DNA of 64,000 nt from Minisyncoccota bacterium (GTDB lineage: Bacteria > Patescibacteriota > Minisyncoccia > Phycocordibacterales > UBA2100): NCBI GenBank assembly GCA_035559235.1, contig DATMBM010000010.1:20257-84256 (forward strand), given 5' to 3'. Position numbers and translations under genes: made by a program. Below, piece by piece: positions 11,250-53,599 of the stretch; within the stretch, counting starts at the first letter, position 1, and each line of letters opens with the position of its first letter. The notes under the pieces are model-generated. The model searched no databases. It was not told where the DNA came from and worked only from the letters and a program-made list of their open reading frames with translations.

Positions 11250-12179
11250 GTGGTGACGATACTGGGGGCATTCATCGTTGCCGTTGCGGCGTGGCTCATG
11301 CCGTTCTTTGCGGACGCGCCGGTAGTGCACCTCCTTCTTCCTGCGCGGGAGGAGCCGCTCAATGCGACGGTTCTCTTCGCGGGCGACATGATGTTCGATC
11401 GCACAATTCGCGCTGCGATGGCAGAAAAGGGGAGTGACCATGTTTTCTCGTGCATTGCGCCGGAGTTGCGGGACGCCGACCTGGTTGTCGCGAATCTTGA
11501 AGGCCCGGTAACGACCCACGATTCAATGAGTCTCGGAAGCGAGATCGGTTCGCTCGAGAACATGACTTTCACGTTTCCCACGACAACCGCGCACCTCCTC
11601 GCACGCTACAACATTCGAGTCGTCTCACTCGCGAACAATCACATCATGAATTTCGGGGACGACGGCCTCATGCAGACGAAGCGATGGCTCGCGGAGGCCG
11701 GTGTCCAGTACTTTGGCGCTCCCGATGATGTCGACCGAACCGCACGTGTCGATATCAAGGGAATTCCGTTTTCATTTATCGGCTGGAGCGATTGGGATAG
11801 CACGACGAAGGACGAAACCCTCGCGCAGATTCGTACGGAGCGAGCGCTTGGCCGCATCGTCGTTGTTTTTGCGCATTGGGGCGAGGAGTATGAGCCGCCG
11901 CCCGAGCGCGTGCGGGCGCTCGGGCGGCACTTTGTCGACGCAGGCGCAACGCTTGTTGTCGGCGCGCATCCCCACATCGTGCAGGAGCACGAAGTATACA
12001 ACGGCACGTATATCTTTTATTCGCTCGGCAATTTCGTGTTCGACCAGTATTGGAATGAAGATGTGCGCACCGGGCTTCTCGTGCGCGCGACATTTAACAA
12101 GTATGGCGTCACGGCAATCGACAGTCTGCCGATCGAACTCGGTCGCGACCGAAGAACGTGCCTCAAAGAAATTGAATAG
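11250..12179 (+). CDS. CapA-family (poly-gamma-glutamate synthesis-type) metallophosphatase protein
   Basis: Motifs GDMMFDR, NLEGP, LANNH, AHWGEEY and GAHPH are characteristic of the CapA/PgsA metallophosphoesterase family. GTG start with N-terminal hydrophobic anchor. Confidence 0.75.
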   Translation: MVTILGAFIVAVAAWLMPFFADAPVVHLLLPAREEPLNATVLFAGDMMFDRTIRAAMAEKGSDHVFSCIAPELRDADLVVANLEGPVTTHDSMSLGSEIGSLENMTFTFPTTTAHLLARYNIRVVSLANNHIMNFGDDGLMQTKRWLAEAGVQYFGAPDDVDRTARVDIKGIPFSFIGWSDWDSTTKDETLAQIRTERALGRIVVVFAHWGEEYEPPPERVRALGRHFVDAGATLVVGAHPHIVQEHEVYNGTYIFYSLGNFVFDQYWNEDVRTGLLVRATFNKYGVTAIDSLPIELGRDRRTCLKEIE

Positions 12180-12206
12180 AGGGCCGTTTTCAGCTATCCT
12201 GTGCGC

Positions 12207-12264
12207 AACTGCCGGATCGCCCGTCTCGCTGAGGCGAGCCGAGGCGGATCTAATGGTAGGACAT
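12207..12264 (+). repeat. truncated 5' copy of tRNA-Gln (26 nt of identity split by a 29-nt hairpin-containing insert); direct repeat of the intact tRNA-Gln 5' end
   Basis: 12207-12219 AACTGCCGGATCG and 12249-12264 TCTAATGGTAGGACAT are identical to 12507-12535 of the intact tRNA-Gln. The intervening 12220-12248 carries a CTCGC-TGAG-GCGAG hairpin. Confidence 0.55.
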
Positions 12265-12508
12265 GTATTTCGTCTACGTGCTAAAATCCGAACGCTCTCG
12301 AAAATCATACGTCGGTCATACCGACAATCTTGAGAAACGGTTGCTGGAGCACAACTTTGGCAAGAATACATCGACGAAACCATTTGCGCCGTGGGTGCGC
12401 GTGTATCACGAGGAATACAAAAGTCGAGAGGCGGCGGTGAAAAGAGAGAAATATTTGAAAAGTCGCGGCGATAGAAGATTCTTTAAAAACGTGGTATTTA
12501 GTACATAA
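12263..12508 (+). CDS. small GIY-YIG nuclease family protein
   Basis: MYFVYVLKS...YVGHTDNLEKRLLEHN is a GIY-YIG signature. 81 aa. The ATG overlaps the end of the tRNA-like fragment, and the stop lies 1 nt before the intact tRNA-Gln. Confidence 0.8.
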   Translation: MYFVYVLKSERSRKSYVGHTDNLEKRLLEHNFGKNTSTKPFAPWVRVYHEEYKSREAAVKREKYLKSRGDRRFFKNVVFST

Positions 12509-12509
12509 C

Positions 12510-12583
12510 TGCCGGATCGTCTAATGGTAGGACATCGCCCTCTGGAGGCGAGTATCTTGGTTCGAGTCCAAGTCCGGCAACCA
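12510..12583 (+). tRNA. tRNA-Gln (anticodon CTG), CCA encoded
   Basis: Acceptor TGCCGGA/TCCGGCA; 3-bp D-stem GTC-TAATGGTAG-GAC; anticodon stem TCGCC/GGCGA with loop CTCTGGA (anticodon CTG); T-arm CTTGG-TTCGAGT-CCAAG; discriminator A then CCA. Confidence 0.8.
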
Positions 12584-12663
12584 CCATATGCTAAGTCAGG
12601 TGACTGACACGCATAGGCATCTATTCTGAAAATGGCATACCTGCTGAGAGCAGTATCCAGAAC

Positions 12664-12690
12664 AAAAATCGCCCCGAAGGGCGATTTTTG
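12664..12690. terminator. bidirectional intrinsic terminator (A5-hairpin-T5)
   Basis: AAAAATCGCCC-CGAA-GGGCGATTTTT: a 7-bp GC-rich stem with a 4-nt loop, flanked by an A-run and a T-run. Confidence 0.55.
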
Positions 12691-12695
12691 TTAGG

Positions 12696-13640
12696 ATGAA
12701 AATCATGAAGAGTTATTACCGCGTGATGCTCGGTCGAAAGAGCGCCTACGCAGATGAGGCCTATAAAGGTAATTTCATTGCGGCCGGATTCATAAAAGAT
12801 AAAGATTTGACCGATCACTTGGTGGAGAATTGGCGGGACTTCAACCGCGAATTTGTACCTCTGTTTATTGAGCAGAATCCTGAGAAAACGAAAATCTCCG
12901 CAGGGCTCGCCTGCGGCATGTTGTGGACGGTTGCCAAGGGTATGCAGATTGGCGACATTGCTTTGTGTCCAGATGGTAAAGGTAACTACTATGTCGGCGA
13001 AGTGACCGGGAATTACGAGTATCACAAAGGAGAACCACTCCCACACCGACGCCCCGTTCGGTGGTTTACAAAAACCATTGCACGCGAAGAGATGAGTGAA
13101 GCGCTCCGGAATTCAACAGGTTCGATCGCTACCGTGAGCAACGTAACAAAGTATGCAAGTGAAATTGAAACGCTCCTTTCCGGAAACGCACCACTCACTA
13201 TCACCACTACCGATGAGACCATAGAAGACCCAACTATTTTTGGACTCGAAAAACACCTCGAAGATTTCCTGGTCTCAAATTGGAAGTCAACCGAGCTCGG
13301 GAAAAACTACGATATCTATGAGGAGGACGATGAAATAGTTGGACAACAATACCCAAGTGACACTGGCCCTATAGACATTCTTGCTATCAGTAAAGATAAG
13401 AAAACGATCCTTGTTGTCGAACTCAAAAAAGGACGTGTGAGCGACGTGGTCGTCGGCCAGTGCCAACGATACATGGGCTACGTGAAGGAAGAGCTTGCAG
13501 AAGATAACCAGGAAGTGCGGGGAGTCATCATTGGGTTTGAAGATGATGTTCGCATCCGCCGTGCGCTCTCGGTCACGAATAACATTGATTTCTATACGTA
13601 TAAGGTCAGCTTCAAGCTCGAGAAAATGAATGGGAAGTAG
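12696..13640 (+). CDS. two-domain nuclease: unknown N-terminal (possibly PUA/EVE-like) domain fused to a C-terminal NucS/DUF91-type PD-(D/E)xK nuclease domain
   Basis: C-terminal PIDILAISKDKKTILVVELKKGRVSDVVVGQCQRYMGYV matches the NucS C-terminal nuclease motif (iDllavD...lvviElKr....v.Ql.rY). The N-terminal ~180 aa is unrecognised; it has a GDIAL...YYVGEV beta-rich pattern. An AGGA element lies upstream, and the alternative start is at 12705. Confidence 0.6.
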   Translation: MKIMKSYYRVMLGRKSAYADEAYKGNFIAAGFIKDKDLTDHLVENWRDFNREFVPLFIEQNPEKTKISAGLACGMLWTVAKGMQIGDIALCPDGKGNYYVGEVTGNYEYHKGEPLPHRRPVRWFTKTIAREEMSEALRNSTGSIATVSNVTKYASEIETLLSGNAPLTITTTDETIEDPTIFGLEKHLEDFLVSNWKSTELGKNYDIYEEDDEIVGQQYPSDTGPIDILAISKDKKTILVVELKKGRVSDVVVGQCQRYMGYVKEELAEDNQEVRGVIIGFEDDVRIRRALSVTNNIDFYTYKVSFKLEKMNGK

Positions 13641-13647
13641 GACACAT

Positions 13648-14085
13648 ATGCAATTCGAATATCCCGAAGATCGGGAATTCTTCGCCAATCTTCTTACCGA
13701 TGGAGATCAGAAGAAGCTCTCGAAATTTAAAGACTACTTTGATTTCAGATCACCCAAAGTAAAACGTGAGGAGTATAACCTCATGCGTGACGCGCTATTC
13801 CAAAAAATCATTAAACGTGACGGATATGTCTGTAGACTTACCATTTCCCCGAGATGTTTGCGCGACCGCGAATTGCAAATTGACCACGTCATCCCGCTCT
13901 CTACCAACATAATCAACAAAACCACCCGTCGAATGAAGGCCCTGCCAGGAAAGAAGGTTGCCGCACAGAGCTTTGGCTCAAATTATCTAGGGAACCTCAT
14001 ATTTGCCTGTCGAGAGTGCAACAGAGAGAAATGGCACCGCTTCTTGGATCGGGAGACCCTGCAGAGGGTACTCAAGAGCATATAG
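13648..14085 (+). CDS. HNH endonuclease
   Basis: CRL...C...DHVIPLS...N...NL...CRECNREKWH is an HNH/zinc-finger signature. AGGA lies 5 nt upstream of the ATG. Starts 7 nt after the stop of the previous gene. Confidence 0.7.
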   Translation: MQFEYPEDREFFANLLTDGDQKKLSKFKDYFDFRSPKVKREEYNLMRDALFQKIIKRDGYVCRLTISPRCLRDRELQIDHVIPLSTNIINKTTRRMKALPGKKVAAQSFGSNYLGNLIFACRECNREKWHRFLDRETLQRVLKSI

Positions 14086-14095
14086 CCAGGGACGC

Positions 14096-14124
14096 TTGAC
14101 AGGGGGGTTTACATTTGATAACCT
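14096..14124 (+). promoter_or_regulatory. sigma70-like promoter (-35 TTGACA, 17-bp spacer, -10 TAACCT) for hsdM; predicted TSS at or near the ATG (leaderless)
   Basis: Perfect TTGACA at 14096-14101 and TAACCT at 14119-14124. The ATG of hsdM lies 7 nt downstream, with no Shine-Dalgarno in between. Confidence 0.4.
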
Positions 14125-14130
14125 TTCCCT

Positions 14131-15924
14131 ATGAAGAAACAGGACTATATCACTACGGCTGACCTGGCAAAGATGCTCGGGGTAAGCCGCGTCTCAGCTC
14201 TCAAGTGGATGAAGAAAGCAGAAAAAGAGCAAGGAATAAAGCTTGTAGAGCTTGGCAGGGGCTTTGTGATAGAGAAGGACTCCCTTCCCAAAGAGCTCAA
14301 GGAGCGGCTTGGAAAGGAGCGCAAGGAGGCCACAGAGAAGGCCATTCGCATAGGCACAAGCCATCATAAGGATATTGATTTCGAGAAAGAGCTTTGGAAC
14401 GCAGCTGATAAGCTCCGGGGAAATATAGACGCGTCCGAGTACAAGCACGTTGTTCTCGGGCTTCTCTTTTTAAAGTATGTCTCTGACGCTTTCTACATGC
14501 GACGTGCGGAGCTGGAACAACGGCTCGCTGATCCAAAGGATAAAGAATTCTATATTGCGGATGCGAAAAGCCGCTCGGTGATTTTGGAGAATCGCGATTC
14601 CTACCGCAGTGCCGGTGTCTTCTACATACCTGAAAAGGCACGATGGGAACACTTGCGTGAGCACGCATCACACTCTGACATTGGGAAATACATAGACGAC
14701 GCGATGACTGCGGTTGAGGAAGAGAACGCAAAACAGCTCAAGGGCGTCTTGCCGAAGATGTATACACGCACGCCGCTTGAGCGTCACGTACTTGGTGAAC
14801 TTGTGAATATTTTCTCTCGTATAAAGTTCAATCACGACATCGACCATGAGAAGGACATGCTCGGGCGCGTGTACGAATACTTTCTCGGACAGTTCGCTTC
14901 GGCAGAGGGCAAACGTGGTGGAGAGTTCTTCAGCCCTCGTTCGCTCGTCCGTCTTCTCATTGAAGTGTTGGAACCATACGAGAACGCACGAATTTTTGAT
15001 CCCGCGGCTGGTAGCGGCGGGATGTTCGTGCAAGCAAGCGCATTTCTGAAAGCTCGCGGCAAAGACGCCGCGCACCTCGGTGTATTTGGCCAAGAGAGCA
15101 ACACCACTACCTGGCGGCTCTGCAAGATGAACCTCGCGATTCGCGGCATCTTCGGGCAGATAGAACAGGGCAACACTTACTATGAGGACAAGTTCTCGGA
15201 CTTACGGGCAGACTTTGTGGCGGCAAATCCGCCGTTTAATGCTGAGTGGGATCCGAAGCGCTTGAGCGACAACGACCCACGCCTCAAGTACGGCACGCCA
15301 CCGTCCTCGAACGCGAACTTTATGTGGATTCAGCATTTCATTCACCATCTCGCTCCAAGCGGCATGGCGGGGTTCATTATGGCAAACGGTGCGCTTGCAG
15401 TCGGAGGTCGCGAAGGAGAGATTCGTAAAAATATTGTTGAGGCGGACCTAGTTGATGTCATCATCGCTTGTCCGCCGAAGCTCTTCTACAACGTCGCGCT
15501 TCCCGTGTCACTCTGGTTTGTGGCGAAGAACAAGAAGGGCGACCGCTTCCGTAACCGTACAGGAGAAACGCTCTTCATAGACGCGCGAGAGCAGTTTGAA
15601 CAAATCTCTCGCAAACAGGTCGTCTTTAATGACGAGCACATCAAGAAAATCACTGATGCTGTACGCGCATGGCGTGGTGAGAAAGGCGCGTCTGAGTACA
15701 AAGACATTCCCGGCTTTTGCAAAGCGGCAAAGCTAGAAGAAATCGCCAAAGCGGGCTATGTGCTCACACCAGGTCGCTATGTCGGCCTCGCCGACGAGGA
15801 GGACGATGGCGTGCCGTTTGAGGAGAAAATGCAAAAGCTCTCGGCAGAGCTCAAAGATGTGTTCAAAAAGGGCGGCGAGCTAGAAGCGCAGATCTTGGCG
15901 AATCTAAAGAAAATCAGTATATGA
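14131..15924 (+). CDS. hsdM: type I restriction-modification N6-adenine DNA methyltransferase subunit M, with an N-terminal HTH extension
   Basis: HsdM N-domain (LWNAADKLRGNIDASEYKHVVLGLLFLKYVSD), AdoMet motif I (FDPAAGSGGM) and motif IV (NPPFN). The first ~80 aa (ITTADLAKMLGVSRVSALKWMKK) looks like an Xis/MerR-type HTH. Confidence 0.9.
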   Translation: MKKQDYITTADLAKMLGVSRVSALKWMKKAEKEQGIKLVELGRGFVIEKDSLPKELKERLGKERKEATEKAIRIGTSHHKDIDFEKELWNAADKLRGNIDASEYKHVVLGLLFLKYVSDAFYMRRAELEQRLADPKDKEFYIADAKSRSVILENRDSYRSAGVFYIPEKARWEHLREHASHSDIGKYIDDAMTAVEEENAKQLKGVLPKMYTRTPLERHVLGELVNIFSRIKFNHDIDHEKDMLGRVYEYFLGQFASAEGKRGGEFFSPRSLVRLLIEVLEPYENARIFDPAAGSGGMFVQASAFLKARGKDAAHLGVFGQESNTTTWRLCKMNLAIRGIFGQIEQGNTYYEDKFSDLRADFVAANPPFNAEWDPKRLSDNDPRLKYGTPPSSNANFMWIQHFIHHLAPSGMAGFIMANGALAVGGREGEIRKNIVEADLVDVIIACPPKLFYNVALPVSLWFVAKNKKGDRFRNRTGETLFIDAREQFEQISRKQVVFNDEHIKKITDAVRAWRGEKGASEYKDIPGFCKAAKLEEIAKAGYVLTPGRYVGLADEEDDGVPFEEKMQKLSAELKDVFKKGGELEAQILANLKKISI

Positions 15925-28796: not shown

Positions 28797-30590
28797 ATGG
28801 AAATCAGAAATATTGCGATTATCGCCCACGTTGACCACGGAAAGACGACCCTGACGGATGCAATTCTGCGTCAGACGGGTGCGGCACAAGAAGGCGTGAC
28901 GATGGACAGTAACAAGCTGGAACAAGAGCGCGGCATCACCATCTACGCGAAAAACGCGGCGGTGATGTATAGGGATACGAAAATCAATATCGTCGACACG
29001 CCGGGGCACGCGGATTTCGGTTCGGAAGTCGAGCGTGTCTTGCGATCGATCGATAGTGTGCTTCTCGTCGTCGACGCACAGGAAGGCCCGATGCCGCAGA
29101 CGCGCTTCGTCCTCAAGAAATCTCTCGAACTCGGGCTGAAACCGATTGTCGTCATCAATAAAATCGACAAGCCGGCGGCAGACCCGCATCGCGCGGAAGA
29201 ACAAGTCTTGGAACTCTTTTTGGAACTTGGCGCCTCGAATGAGCAGGCGGAATTTCCCGTCGTGTATGCGATCGGGAAACTTGGCATTGCGAAACGGAAG
29301 CTCGACGAGGAATCGAAGGATCTGACACCGCTCCTTGACGCGATTTTGGAAAAGGTGCCGTCCGCCTCGGCTTCGCCTCAGCGAGACGGGGTTGCCGTGC
29401 GCGCACAACCATTTAATCTCGCCTACGACAACTTTCTCGGCCGTCTCGCCGTCGTGCGTGTGTATAAGGGCACATTGAAAACGGGCGCAAGCATCTTTGT
29501 AAAAAAGCCGTCGGGGGAAGTCCGCGCAGGGAAGATCACGAAAATGTTTACCTTCGAAGGCCTGAAGCGCGTCGAGGCGCAAGAAGTCCCGCCGGGCGAC
29601 ATCGCGCTCATTGCCGGCATTCCCGATATCGAAATCGGGGAAACGGTGACGACCGACAAGGATGCGGAGCCCTTGCCCGCCATCGCCGTCGACGAACCGA
29701 CGATTACCCTCAATTTCCTCGTGAATAATTCGCCGTTTGGCGGACGCGAGGGGAAGTTTGTCACCTCGCGCCAGCTGCGCGACCGGCTCGAAAAAGAATT
29801 GGAAATCAACGTGGGACTACGCGTCGATTTCGAGAACCCCGACAATTTTAAAGTCTCCGGTCGGGGGGAATTGCACATCGCGATCCTTTTGGAAAACATG
29901 CGGCGCGAAGGATATGAGATGCAGGTCTCGCAGCCGCAGGTGATTGTGCGCGAAGAAAACGGCATAAAGACGGAACCGTTCGAGGAAGTCGTCATCGATA
30001 TCCCGTCACGATATCAGGGCGCGATCATTGAGCGACTCGGCATGCGCGGCTTTGTGATGCAGAATCTCGTGGTTCACGGCGATACGGTGCGCCTGATTTT
30101 TGAAGGTCCGACCCGCGGGCTCCTCGGTTACCGCAACCAATTCATCATCGATACCAAGGGCGAGGGCATCATTGCCGCGCGCGTCATAGGCTTCAAGCCG
30201 TTTGCGGGAGACATCAGGAAGCGACCGCAGGGCTCGATGATTTCGATGGCGACCGGGAAGGCGCTCGGCTTTTCTCTGTGGAATTTGCAGGATCGCGGCC
30301 GACTCTATATCGGCCCGGCGACCGAGGTGTACGAAGGGCAGGTGATTGGGGACACGTCGAAAGGCGAGGAGATGACGGTGAATCCGACGAAGGGGAAGAA
30401 CCTCACCAACGTCCGCGCGTCCGGAAGCGACGAGGCGATCCAGCTCATCCCGCCGTATGAATTGACGATCGAACGAGGGCTTGAACTTATGCAAAAGGAC
30501 GAATACCTGGAAGTGACGCCGCAGTCGGTGCGCCTCCGCAAAATCCACCTTACGGAAACTGACCGCGCGCGTGCTGCGCGAAAAGAGTAG
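28797..30590 (+). CDS. typA: translational GTPase TypA/BipA
   Basis: G1 AHVDHGKTT; G3 DTPGHADF; G4 NKID; 597 aa; EF-G-like C-terminal domains. Confidence 0.9.
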   Translation: MEIRNIAIIAHVDHGKTTLTDAILRQTGAAQEGVTMDSNKLEQERGITIYAKNAAVMYRDTKINIVDTPGHADFGSEVERVLRSIDSVLLVVDAQEGPMPQTRFVLKKSLELGLKPIVVINKIDKPAADPHRAEEQVLELFLELGASNEQAEFPVVYAIGKLGIAKRKLDEESKDLTPLLDAILEKVPSASASPQRDGVAVRAQPFNLAYDNFLGRLAVVRVYKGTLKTGASIFVKKPSGEVRAGKITKMFTFEGLKRVEAQEVPPGDIALIAGIPDIEIGETVTTDKDAEPLPAIAVDEPTITLNFLVNNSPFGGREGKFVTSRQLRDRLEKELEINVGLRVDFENPDNFKVSGRGELHIAILLENMRREGYEMQVSQPQVIVREENGIKTEPFEEVVIDIPSRYQGAIIERLGMRGFVMQNLVVHGDTVRLIFEGPTRGLLGYRNQFIIDTKGEGIIAARVIGFKPFAGDIRKRPQGSMISMATGKALGFSLWNLQDRGRLYIGPATEVYEGQVIGDTSKGEEMTVNPTKGKNLTNVRASGSDEAIQLIPPYELTIERGLELMQKDEYLEVTPQSVRLRKIHLTETDRARAARKE

Positions 30591-52588: not shown

Positions 52589-53221
52589 GTGTGCCTGCTT
52601 CTGGTACCTGTGCTGAGCGCGGCGCAGGAGCTGCGCATCGTCGAGGGCCCGTCGGTCACAGTCGATGATCCGGAAGCGTACCGGGCGTACTACGGCAAGC
52701 TCGCGGGCGAAGAGCATGTGTACCACATCGAGTCGGCAGACCCGTTCCGTCTTTCTGTCGTGATTTTGACGCCGAACGTCGAAGGGGCACGCACCGATTT
52801 TTCCGCCGCCGTGTACGACAAGATCGACACTGACGAGCCGGTGATCGTACTCGACGGGACGGTATCCGAATGGCAGTGGTTCTTCGATACTGCGGGACGC
52901 GATGAATATCTTGCCGGGCCGGTATTGCGGGGCGGTCTCCCACAGGGCGCCTACGAGGTCCGCGTTTCTAATCCCGATAACCAAGGCGCATACGTGCTCG
53001 TCCTCGGCGAAGACAGCTGGTTTTCCAATTCGGGCCTCATCAGCCGCTATAGCGCCCTGCCCACCATCAAGACGGAATTCTTCGGAAAGCCTGCCTCGCA
53101 GGCATACGTGACGCCGCTCCTTATGTGGCCGGTTATTGCGCTCCTGATCGTCATCACAATCATAGTTTTTGCGCTCTACATTGTCCGCAGACGCCGCGCT
53201 CCGGCAGAGATCGCGATATAG
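52589..53221 (+). CDS. hypothetical exported protein with C-terminal TM anchor
   Basis: GTG start. N-terminal hydrophobic segment. C-terminal LLMWPVIALLIVITIIVFALYIVRRRR anchor. Confidence 0.45.
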   Translation: MCLLLVPVLSAAQELRIVEGPSVTVDDPEAYRAYYGKLAGEEHVYHIESADPFRLSVVILTPNVEGARTDFSAAVYDKIDTDEPVIVLDGTVSEWQWFFDTAGRDEYLAGPVLRGGLPQGAYEVRVSNPDNQGAYVLVLGEDSWFSNSGLISRYSALPTIKTEFFGKPASQAYVTPLLMWPVIALLIVITIIVFALYIVRRRRAPAEIAI

Positions 53222-53371
53222 GCACGGCGGCGCTGCGCACTCTTTCACCTCCATTTCACCGGTAAGAACCGATACTGGAAGCGGTCCGCCTCGGCTCGCG
53301 AGGCGAGACGGGTCGAGTTGAGGAGCTTAATCATCGCCCCCGAGCGCAGCGGTGCAACGGGGTACCATAGT

Positions 53372-53599
53372 ATGGTAAAGAAATACCTTGCAAGCCTTTG
53401 GGCTGCTGCGCTCTGGATGTTCGCTGGCGTCGCGAGCGCACAGACGACAAGTCCGACAACGACCGCGACAACGACGCCTGGCGTCCCGGACACGGGAGCA
53501 GGAGACGTCGTCATGAACAGCGTCGTTCTCGGAGCTGTGGCGATCATCGCAATCGGTGCGGCTGCGTACCTCTACTACATGAGGAGCCCGAACGGATAG
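53372..53599 (+). CDS. minimal sortase-substrate-like protein (signal peptide, ~20-aa Thr-rich mature region, VPDTG sorting motif, TM helix, basic tail)
   Basis: MVKKYLASLWAAALWMFAGVASA | QTTSPTTTATTTPG | VPDTG | AGDVVMNSVVLGAVAIIAIGAAAYLYY | MRSPNG. Lies 52 nt upstream of the intact sortase gene. Confidence 0.5.
   Translation: MVKKYLASLWAAALWMFAGVASAQTTSPTTTATTTPGVPDTGAGDVVMNSVVLGAVAIIAIGAAAYLYYMRSPNG

Follow-up and report, generated by a model that had tools for sequence, protein, structure and literature searches.

How does a gene for a small nuclease come to lie inside a tRNA gene without destroying it? This question is raised by a locus in a 64,000-nucleotide stretch of contig DATMBM010000010.1 from a Minisyncoccota bacterium (assembly GCA_035559235.1), the whole of which is called the window here, where a gene for an 81-amino-acid GIY-YIG protein is enclosed between a partial, hairpin-split copy of a tRNA-Gln gene and an intact one. 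We consider it probable, on balance, that this locus is one copy of a large and previously undescribed family of small selfish cassettes that reside inside tRNA genes and combine an Ssn-like nuclease with a cognate hairpin. As read from the sequences, such a cassette appears to consist of a bare GIY-YIG gene of about 80 codons and a GC-rich palindromic hairpin whose type matches the nuclease lineage. It appears to split a tRNA gene and to duplicate the part split off, so that one intact tRNA remains and the leftover copy bears the hairpin.

Anatomy of the tRNA-Gln locus

An earlier note on this DNA held that 26 nt of the tRNA-Gln 5′ end are directly repeated around the GIY-YIG open reading frame (ORF), and a repeat finder bears this out with two exact direct repeats, AACTGCCGGATCG at 12207-12219 and 12507-12519 (13 nt, spacing 300) and TCTAATGGTAGGACAT at 12249-12264 and 12520-12535 (16 nt, spacing 271). 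Taken together, the two repeats comprise AAC plus tRNA-Gln positions 1-26 and are contiguous in the downstream copy (12507-12535). In the upstream copy, which lies on the forward strand, AAC plus positions 1-10 (12207-12219) are parted from positions 11-26 (12249-12264) by a 29-nt GC-rich palindromic hairpin, CCCGTCTCGCTGAGGCGAGCCGAGGCGGA, at 12220-12248 on the same strand, of a type written CCCG(C/T)CTCG...CGAGGCGG and referred to below as type II. This insertion between tRNA positions 10 and 11 is precise, tRNA bases being neither lost nor duplicated. That the insert forms a hairpin, as the earlier note had also proposed, is supported by folding: the RNA of 12200-12270 reaches −29.5 kcal/mol (z −2.3), and the 29-nt insert alone, folded as DNA, gives an 8-pair stem with a modest −6.8 kcal/mol.

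The GIY-YIG gene occupies 12263-12508 (+). Its ATG takes the A and T from the final two bases of the repeat (GGACAT, followed by the G), and its stop codon TAA (12506-12508) is separated by a single C at 12509 from the tRNA-Gln gene, so that the overlap at the start and the one-base spacing at the end stand as first described. The tRNA-Gln at 12510-12583 (+; anticodon CTG, CCA encoded) is called by both ARAGORN and Rfam (tRNA, 61.1 bits), and the downstream repeat copy supplies its first 26 nt, in agreement with an insertion into a tRNA gene that left an intact tRNA behind. Chance similarity is not the cause, since by our own estimate 1 kb would contain, at random, about 0.01 pairs of exact 13-mers and about 1e-4 pairs of exact 16-mers, and here the two are collinear.

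The protein was examined by profile, alignment and structure prediction. It matches the Pfam family GIY-YIG PF01541 with 56 bits against a cut-off of 22.6 (E 5e-15), and the two tyrosines, arginine, histidine and glutamate of the catalytic set are present as Y5, Y16, R26, H30 and E62, which are invariant in an alignment of 29 relatives. An AlphaFold model (pLDDT 86.5) displays the beta-beta-alpha-beta-alpha order of the GIY-YIG fold, with strands at residues 2-9, 15-20 and 44-52 and helices at 23-32 and 55-66. The nearest solved proteins are UPF0213 (E 3e-13 by profile) and the Slx1 nuclease domain (TM 0.61-0.69), followed by the I-TevI catalytic domain, whereas the match to TIGR01453 covers residues 2-31 only and falls far under the cut-off. 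All 81 residues are taken up by the catalytic domain, with none beyond it and no DNA-binding domain. By sequence and model, the protein is thus a predicted nuclease that appears to be a complete but bare catalytic domain. A ‘Candidatus Paceibacterota’ metagenome-assembled genome (MAG) encodes the same protein with 100% identity; an exact-sequence look-up in the contig index returned nothing. The GC content of the ORF is about 46%, compared with 55-60% for the upstream genes.

Several other accounts of the gene were set aside at this stage. Scans of the protein against NCBIfam, PADLOC and PHROGs gave no meaningful family, only weak defence or phage hits at most, and a defence-system or phage-protein reading was dropped on that basis. 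The sole ORF of the unit of about 300 bp is the GIY-YIG gene; neither a site-specific recombinase nor an HUH (Y1) transposase is found in it, and a duplication of integrase att sites was rejected because the recombinase is missing. A group I intron was likewise rejected, as there is no Rfam hit, the insert is nearly all ORF and the tRNA is intact.

Recurrence across genomes and empty sites

By scanning species-representative genomes with a 12-sequence alignment, we obtained at least 560 hits, 80 of which (45-60% identity) were taken as relatives and, with the window, make up the 81 loci compared here. The hosts of these relatives belong to Bacteroidota, Patescibacteria, Omnitrophota, Ignavibacteria and Scalindua. 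A same-strand tRNA gene adjoins the ORF in 67 of the 81 loci, and the tRNAs involved cover 13 amino-acid types. In the commoner arrangement, type A (56 loci), an intact tRNA on the same strand begins between −39 and +78 nt relative to the ORF stop, and in 54 loci it does so within −39 to +34. Type B (11 loci) is its mirror image, with the intact tRNA just upstream of the ORF and a tRNA 3′ fragment after it. Of the remaining loci, six (mostly arrays) have a tRNA within 1.5 kb, five run into a contig end and three are without any such tRNA. The 5′ location, which had been singled out as an oddity, is therefore the commoner of two regular forms, at 56 loci against 11 with a 3′ fragment.

The duplication is equally regular. 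At nearly all type A loci, a second copy of roughly the first 20 nt of the adjoining tRNA precedes the ATG by 40-110 nt; for 45 of 53 loci none of 200 shuffles reached the observed score, and in the other eight at most four of 200 did so. The duplicated segment is 26-46 nt long. The ORF stop is frequently built from tRNA bases, being the TAG at positions 8-10 in 15 loci and a TAG of the D-loop in 12. This architecture recurs in more than 60 independent assemblies, isolate genomes included, which excludes an assembly artefact. The window does come from a metagenome-assembled genome, and contigs often break near such loci, but exact and collinear 13-nt and 16-nt repeats and this recurrence leave artefact or chance with practically no probability. 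It should be noted, as a separate observation, that several of the relatives’ contigs end within about 100 nt of the GIY-YIG gene.

Beyond the 81 loci, the family profile retrieves 9,526 protein clusters at E <= 1e-10, many of which have N-terminal extensions or are called as fusions. Among the gene calls P0062-P0211, many are 100-214 amino acids long, with a domain that begins at residue 20-60 or occurs twice, which suggests that start codons were assigned within the tRNA fragment or hairpin, or that reading frames ran on through arrays. Only three relatives were found on viral contigs, so phages are not the main carriers, and the single hit of the window protein in a plasmid collection is an Azospirillum gene discussed below. 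Between phyla, protein pairs are up to 71% identical, and in several of these pairs both members are found at tRNA-Leu(CAA). A second kind of single-domain GIY-YIG gene, more Ssn-like and with a C-terminus of the form ..KGW.REKK.., was also seen beside tRNA genes in Patescibacteria loci (L002 2432-2680; L020 2487-2789; L062 530-787; L006 945-1196, reverse strand), and the stop of that in L062 overlaps tRNA-Ile by 10 nt, so that the association with tRNA genes may reach beyond the family studied here.

Tandem arrays are a further property of the family. Three ORFs follow one another with a period of 315 nt in L003, L028 and L043 hold three units each (two of the ORFs in L043 being intact) and L046 is an array of five ORFs, the members including identical copies, copies of 82-93% identity and frameshifted ones. 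In L027, full-length hairpin-split copies of tRNA-Leu stand between the ORFs. Such full-length split copies also occur with no ORF at all (L030, L078), where ARAGORN calls them as a 93-nt ‘tRNA-???’.

To view the window locus against its own tRNA, the first 43 nt of its tRNA-Gln were used in a metagenome scan that yielded 46 loci in about 31 distinct upstream contexts, in which remnants upstream of the tRNA were judged by exact seeds and inspection, alignment with cheap gaps being too permissive. Plain loci make up about 25 of the roughly 31 contexts. They include L086, which shares an upstream CapA-like gene (59% identity) with the window and is a syntenic empty site. The comparison with related tRNA-Gln loci that the earlier note had proposed thus finds the empty sites it looked for, and the arrangement is not a universally conserved leader. 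With such a leader ruled out by the empty sites and an artefact by recurrence, neither of the two findings that the note had named as refuting its view was obtained, and the ORF and hairpin at this tRNA-Gln are best read, by sequence comparison, as an insertion rather than an ancestral leader. Among the occupied contexts, L112 and L117 hold other GIY-YIG lineages, with a hairpin after position 9 or 7, and the L117 ORF carries an in-frame stop. A hairpin-split 5′ fragment with no ORF is found in L085 and in L083, which is identical to L089. In L094 the first 30 nt of tRNA-Gln are duplicated 89 nt upstream across a 59-nt spacer, with neither hairpin nor ORF; this duplicate may be what was left when an ORF was lost, or it may have arisen by an event of another kind.

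Presence and absence at an identical tRNA gene is what a classical homing endonuclease would produce, and the earlier note had likened the repeat to the target-site duplication of such an enzyme. On that explanation, the double-stranded, uninterrupted tRNA gene would be cut, the ORF copied in with a target-site duplication, and the hairpin added later by an unrelated event. An intact GIY-YIG catalytic domain, the finding of related proteins at the same tRNA type (all closest relatives of the window protein are at tRNA-Gln) and the precedent of T4 SegB, which is located in a tRNA gene cluster (PMC2330249), are all in its favour. However, a bare 81-residue domain closest to the UPF0213, Slx1 and Ssn types is not a classical two-domain homing endonuclease, as it lacks the DNA-binding domain, and the presumed target, the intact tRNA, survives beside the gene. 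Repeats of 26-46 nt far exceed the 2-nt overhangs of SegB (PMC2330249), and together with mirror-image 3′ versions and tandem arrays they are unlike the outcome of a staggered cut. Units of hairpin and fragment that lack the ORF, and the conservation of the hairpin and its co-variation with the protein described in the next section, are not explained either. We therefore regard this explanation as unlikely, and the likeness to target-site duplication is not upheld.

The same comparisons bear on the proposal that the gene serves its host in tRNA biology, be it quality control, processing or defence, with the tRNA-like leader and hairpin acting as a regulator of the operon. Strict co-orientation and tight coupling with tRNA genes would fit such a function, a GIY-YIG fusion to a TrmH-like tRNA methyltransferase was an earlier hint of roles on RNA (PMC1564403), and the upstream genes are the same in all 10 places shown for a Leeuwenhoekiella protein. 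Against these points stand the sporadic distribution, with about 25 of 31 identical tRNA-Gln contexts empty, the frameshifted copies within tandem arrays, an ORF GC content below that of the upstream neighbours, the use of 13 different tRNA types, defence or phage matches that are weak at most, and the inactivity of SsnA on RNA (PMC11893778). A host function is, in our judgement, very unlikely.

The hairpin and the transcript

A GC-rich palindrome interrupts the partial tRNA copy at almost all loci, and some copies contain two. In about 55 cases, the tRNA sequence resumes past the hairpin with zero bases lost or duplicated. The commonest site, with 17 loci, is between tRNA positions 22 and 23; other sites are 7, 9-11, 14-15, 18-21, 24, 30-32, 46, 57 and 65. 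Three types of hairpin were distinguished, namely CCTGCCTGCCGGCAGGCAGG, CCCGCCCG...TTCGGGCGGG, and the CCCG(C/T)CTCG...CGAGGCGG type, which the window shares with all of its closest relatives at tRNA-Gln. The CCTGCC type is found at Arg, Leu, Asn, Met and Phe tRNAs in Bacteroidota and Patescibacteria, and the CCCGCCCG type at Ala, Asp, Val and Arg tRNAs in Flavobacteria, a Patescibacteria bin and Scalindua. By comparing each protein with its nearest neighbour, we found that the two share a hairpin type in 57 of 59 classifiable loci, a value reached by none of 2000 permutations. The hairpin type follows the protein clade and not the identity of the tRNA or host.

The window itself holds three matches to its hairpin pattern in 64 kb, against an expectation of zero. 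The second, near-identical copy (29361-29390, reverse strand) lies inside a forward-strand ORF for a TypA/BipA-like GTPase (28797-30590), where it encodes ..VPSASASPQRDG... An alignment with E. coli BipA places only three extra residues at this point, so that a surface loop seems to have been exchanged for the repeat or remodelled by it, much as with Rickettsia palindromic elements (RPE). The third copy (53285-53312, reverse strand) is intergenic, between the ORFs at 52589-53221 and 53318-53599. All three keep a G-T pair, in whose place the opposite strand would have an A-C mismatch, which suggests that one strand matters. Rfam 15, searched at a permissive E-value for the window and with gathering scores for 12 related loci, returned tRNA only and no family for the upstream fragment or hairpin. 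A role of the hairpin as a terminator was rejected, as no T run follows it and termination there would silence the tRNA.

Copies away from the ORF, such as those within typA and the intergenic spacer, are what would be expected if the hairpin were a passive repeat, comparable to repetitive extragenic palindromic (REP) sequences, miniature inverted-repeat transposable elements or RPE, that settles in dispensable DNA such as a dead tRNA fragment, with the ORF an unrelated hitch-hiker on tRNA promoters. The variable position and orientation of the hairpin in the fragment and the hairpin-split tRNA copies with no adjoining ORF (L030, L078, L083, L085) point in the same direction. What this account leaves unexplained is that the hairpin type tracks the nuclease clade across tRNAs and phyla (57/59), that a hairpin is present in nearly all partial copies and twice in some, and that an identical 20-mer, CCTGCCTGCCGGCAGGCAGG, accompanies this gene family in Bacteroidota and Patescibacteria alike; moreover, the pairing of Ssn enzymes with their repeats is a precedent for a link (PMC11893778). 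We think a passive repeat quite improbable. The earlier note had treated the hairpin as a mere interruption of the tRNA copy, a view that is not in keeping with a type that follows the nuclease clade or with three dispersed copies in the window. On these sequence grounds, the hairpin appears to be a conserved component or partner of the nuclease rather than incidental damage.

The position of the promoter relates the hairpin and ORF to the expression of the tRNA. A probable native tRNA-Gln promoter lies at 12172-12200 (+), composed of TTGAAT (12172-12177), a 17-nt spacer and TATCCT (12195-12200), and the latter ends 9 nt before the partial tRNA copy. Plain tRNA-Gln loci (L086, L093, L103, L108, L115, L116, L119) carry TTGAAA-N17-TA(T/A)TCT 8-10 nt before position 1, and the empty site L086, reading CGTTTTTCAGCTATTCTTGCCACACAT followed by TGCCGG, aligns with the window sequence CGTTTTCAGCTATCCTGTGCGCAAC followed by TGCCGG just ahead of the partial copy. 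A generic sigma-70 scan did not flag the candidate at 12172-12200. In Bacteroidota, the promoter motif of that phylum, TAnnTTTG, precedes the first fragment in 18 of 32 loci and the intact tRNA in only one of 32. The native promoter is thus probably located upstream of the partial copy, from where the original promoter would drive fragment, hairpin, ORF and tRNA, and the ORF and tRNA are probably co-transcribed.

Downstream of the tRNA-Gln, a perfect 14-bp hairpin followed by a T run (12661-12692, +; an inverted repeat) is the likely terminator of the tRNA transcription unit, and an equivalent hairpin stands 3′ of tRNA-Gln in L089, L095 and L100. A conserved element of about 45 nt (CTATTCYGAAAATKGCATACCTGCTGAGNGCAGTATCCAGA) precedes it, the two spanning 12619-12692 in the window and occurring also in L100, L095, L089 and L110; the element is matched by no Rfam family and may represent a small RNA. 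Immediately 3′ of the tRNA-Gln, a block of lower GC content (44-50%, 12696-15924) encodes a NucS/PD-(D/E)XK-like protein, an HNH protein and, with its translation judged by eye, a type I restriction-modification methylase-like ORF. This block may be an island integrated at the 3′ side of the tRNA-Gln. On the other side, a perfect 13-bp GC-rich inverted repeat (GCCGCCCGAGCGC..GCGCTCGGGCGGC, 11897-11928) lies within the CapA-like gene directly upstream of the locus.

Proposed life cycle and relation to known systems

Considering the cassette as a selfish unit of nuclease and cognate hairpin, its life cycle may be outlined as follows. The native tRNA promoter would give a single RNA of fragment, hairpin, ORF and tRNA, from which RNase P would free the tRNA, the upstream portion serving as the nuclease mRNA. 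The nuclease would then bind its own hairpin in DNA made single-stranded by replication, heavy transcription or DNA uptake and, by analogy with the Ssn enzymes, nick near it. A nick within repeated tRNA sequence could provoke recombination or template switching between tRNA copies, which would give rise to tandem arrays, spread of the hairpin to other sites and conversion of empty tRNA alleles. Conserved tRNA sequence on both sides would act as portable homology into the same tRNA gene of distant hosts, and the hairpin would interrupt a direct repeat that could otherwise delete the ORF. Taken further, such cassettes might constitute a class of mobile element that needs no transposase, with autonomous forms (nuclease gene and hairpin) and non-autonomous forms (hairpin and tRNA fragment), tRNA sequences as homology arms, a borrowed promoter, a tRNA that is always rebuilt and a range that crosses phyla. 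This broader proposal is put forward tentatively, and we judge it to have somewhat less than an even chance of being correct.

Several observations weigh against the cassette reading or narrow it. We infer every step of the mechanism, cutting and movement included, and a hydrolytic nuclease cannot join DNA, so that host recombination must do the rest. At tRNA-Gln, the hairpin sits after position 7, 9, 10, 12 or 18-19, and the orientation of type II varies between loci; with position and orientation so variable, a single fixed cut site is unsupported. An identical protein at different tRNA genes was sought and not found, the upstream genes of the Leeuwenhoekiella protein (P0011) being the same at all 10 places shown out of 24 contigs read; the element occupies one site there, which indicates that its activity may be rare. 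Some of the cross-phylum cases are short contigs of metagenome bins and possibly misassigned. Finally, the hairpins do not fit the NTS/SRM consensus of the Ssn repeats (CGTCATTCCCGCGMAVGCGGGAATCYRG), and they stand on one side of the gene only, within the partial tRNA copy, whereas Ssn repeats stand on both.

The family is large, as the 9,526 clusters and at least 560 genome hits attest, and its cassettes account for pseudo-tRNA fragments and the 93-nt ‘tRNA-???’ calls of ARAGORN. They would also account for N-terminally extended or fused gene calls and for frequent contig breaks near tRNAs in Bacteroidota and Patescibacteria. Should the model prove correct, it supplies a concrete selfish life cycle for the recently found Ssn-type nucleases and a way for an element to move with neither transposase nor integrase. 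The three hairpin types are new candidate specificities for single-stranded-DNA nucleases, a group that the authors of the Ssn study present as tools (PMC11893778), and the role and spread of hairpin repeats such as NTS and RPE become directly testable.

Compared with known systems, the cassette shares individual features with several. Elements of the IS200/IS605, REP-RAYT and RPE kinds are centred on hairpins, make no target-site duplication, exist in autonomous and non-autonomous forms and place palindromes within genes. The precise, duplication-free insertion of the hairpin and the palindrome inside typA resemble them. However, IS200/IS605 and REP-RAYT elements rely on HUH transposases that form covalent intermediates, and the GIY-YIG hydrolase of the cassette cannot transfer strands. 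Integrative elements that target tRNA genes also split the gene by insertion and keep an intact one by means of a duplicated segment. They are of kilobase scale and depend on a recombinase of the tyrosine or serine class, and the segment they duplicate is normally the 3′ end; the cassette, by contrast, measures about 300 bp, has no recombinase, mostly duplicates the 5′ end and leaves behind a copy split by a hairpin.

Among proteins of the same fold, the UPF0213 proteins (BH0048, EF2693) and the Slx1 nuclease domain present the same minimal domain and are the closest in solved structure and sequence. We know of no function for UPF0213 proteins; Slx1 acts with Slx4 on branched DNA in eukaryotes. 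T4 SegB and I-TevI share the GIY-YIG catalytic fold and a selfish pattern of presence and absence, which the cassette displays at a conserved target (about 25 of 31 tRNA-Gln contexts empty, L086 among them). Unlike the cassette protein, the T4 Seg and I-TevI enzymes have two domains, one of them a C-terminal DNA-binding domain that the window protein does not possess, and cut double-stranded DNA; they are not inside a tRNA gene, make no tRNA duplication and have no cognate hairpin.

The closest parallel is offered by the Ssn nucleases, single-domain GIY-YIG proteins of 94 amino acids that bind and cut only single-stranded DNA beside NTS/SRM hairpin repeats, which are found on either side of the ssn genes as well as dispersed over the genome; SsnA is inactive on RNA (Chenal et al., Nat Commun 2025; PMC11893778). 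Here too we find a single-domain GIY-YIG protein of 80-100 amino acids (81 with no extra domain in the window), an adjacent GC-rich hairpin repeat that co-varies with the protein across the family, and further dispersed copies of it in the genome. The Azospirillum gene mentioned above provides a bridge between the two. It lies between sufB and sufC, has a copy of CGTCATCCCCGCGAAGGCGGGGATCCAG on either side, a sequence that conforms to the published consensus of the Ssn repeats if one compensated pair is allowed, and encodes a protein with 41% identity to the window protein over 65 amino acids. Against the profile of the tRNA-cassette family, this protein scores 63.6 bits, above the 52.8 bits of the UPF0213 structures, from which it follows that the cassette family is a relative of the Ssn-type enzymes with different hairpins; this relationship, supported at the sequence level, is a placement by profile score and not a cd10448 assignment. 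The commonest cassette hairpin and the Azospirillum repeat both fold into an 8-pair stem with a 4-nt loop. The cassette proteins are shorter and lack the C-terminal KKW...NP.W.DL tail of the Azospirillum protein. The cassette also differs from Ssn systems in that its gene lies inside a tRNA gene, for which a duplication compensates. The Ssn paper nowhere mentions tRNA (PMC11893778), and a full-text literature search returned no paper that links GIY-YIG or Ssn proteins with tRNA genes or reports GIY-YIG genes embedded in them. The stereotyped, tRNA-embedded union of an Ssn-like nuclease with its hairpin therefore represents an apparently undescribed cassette family.

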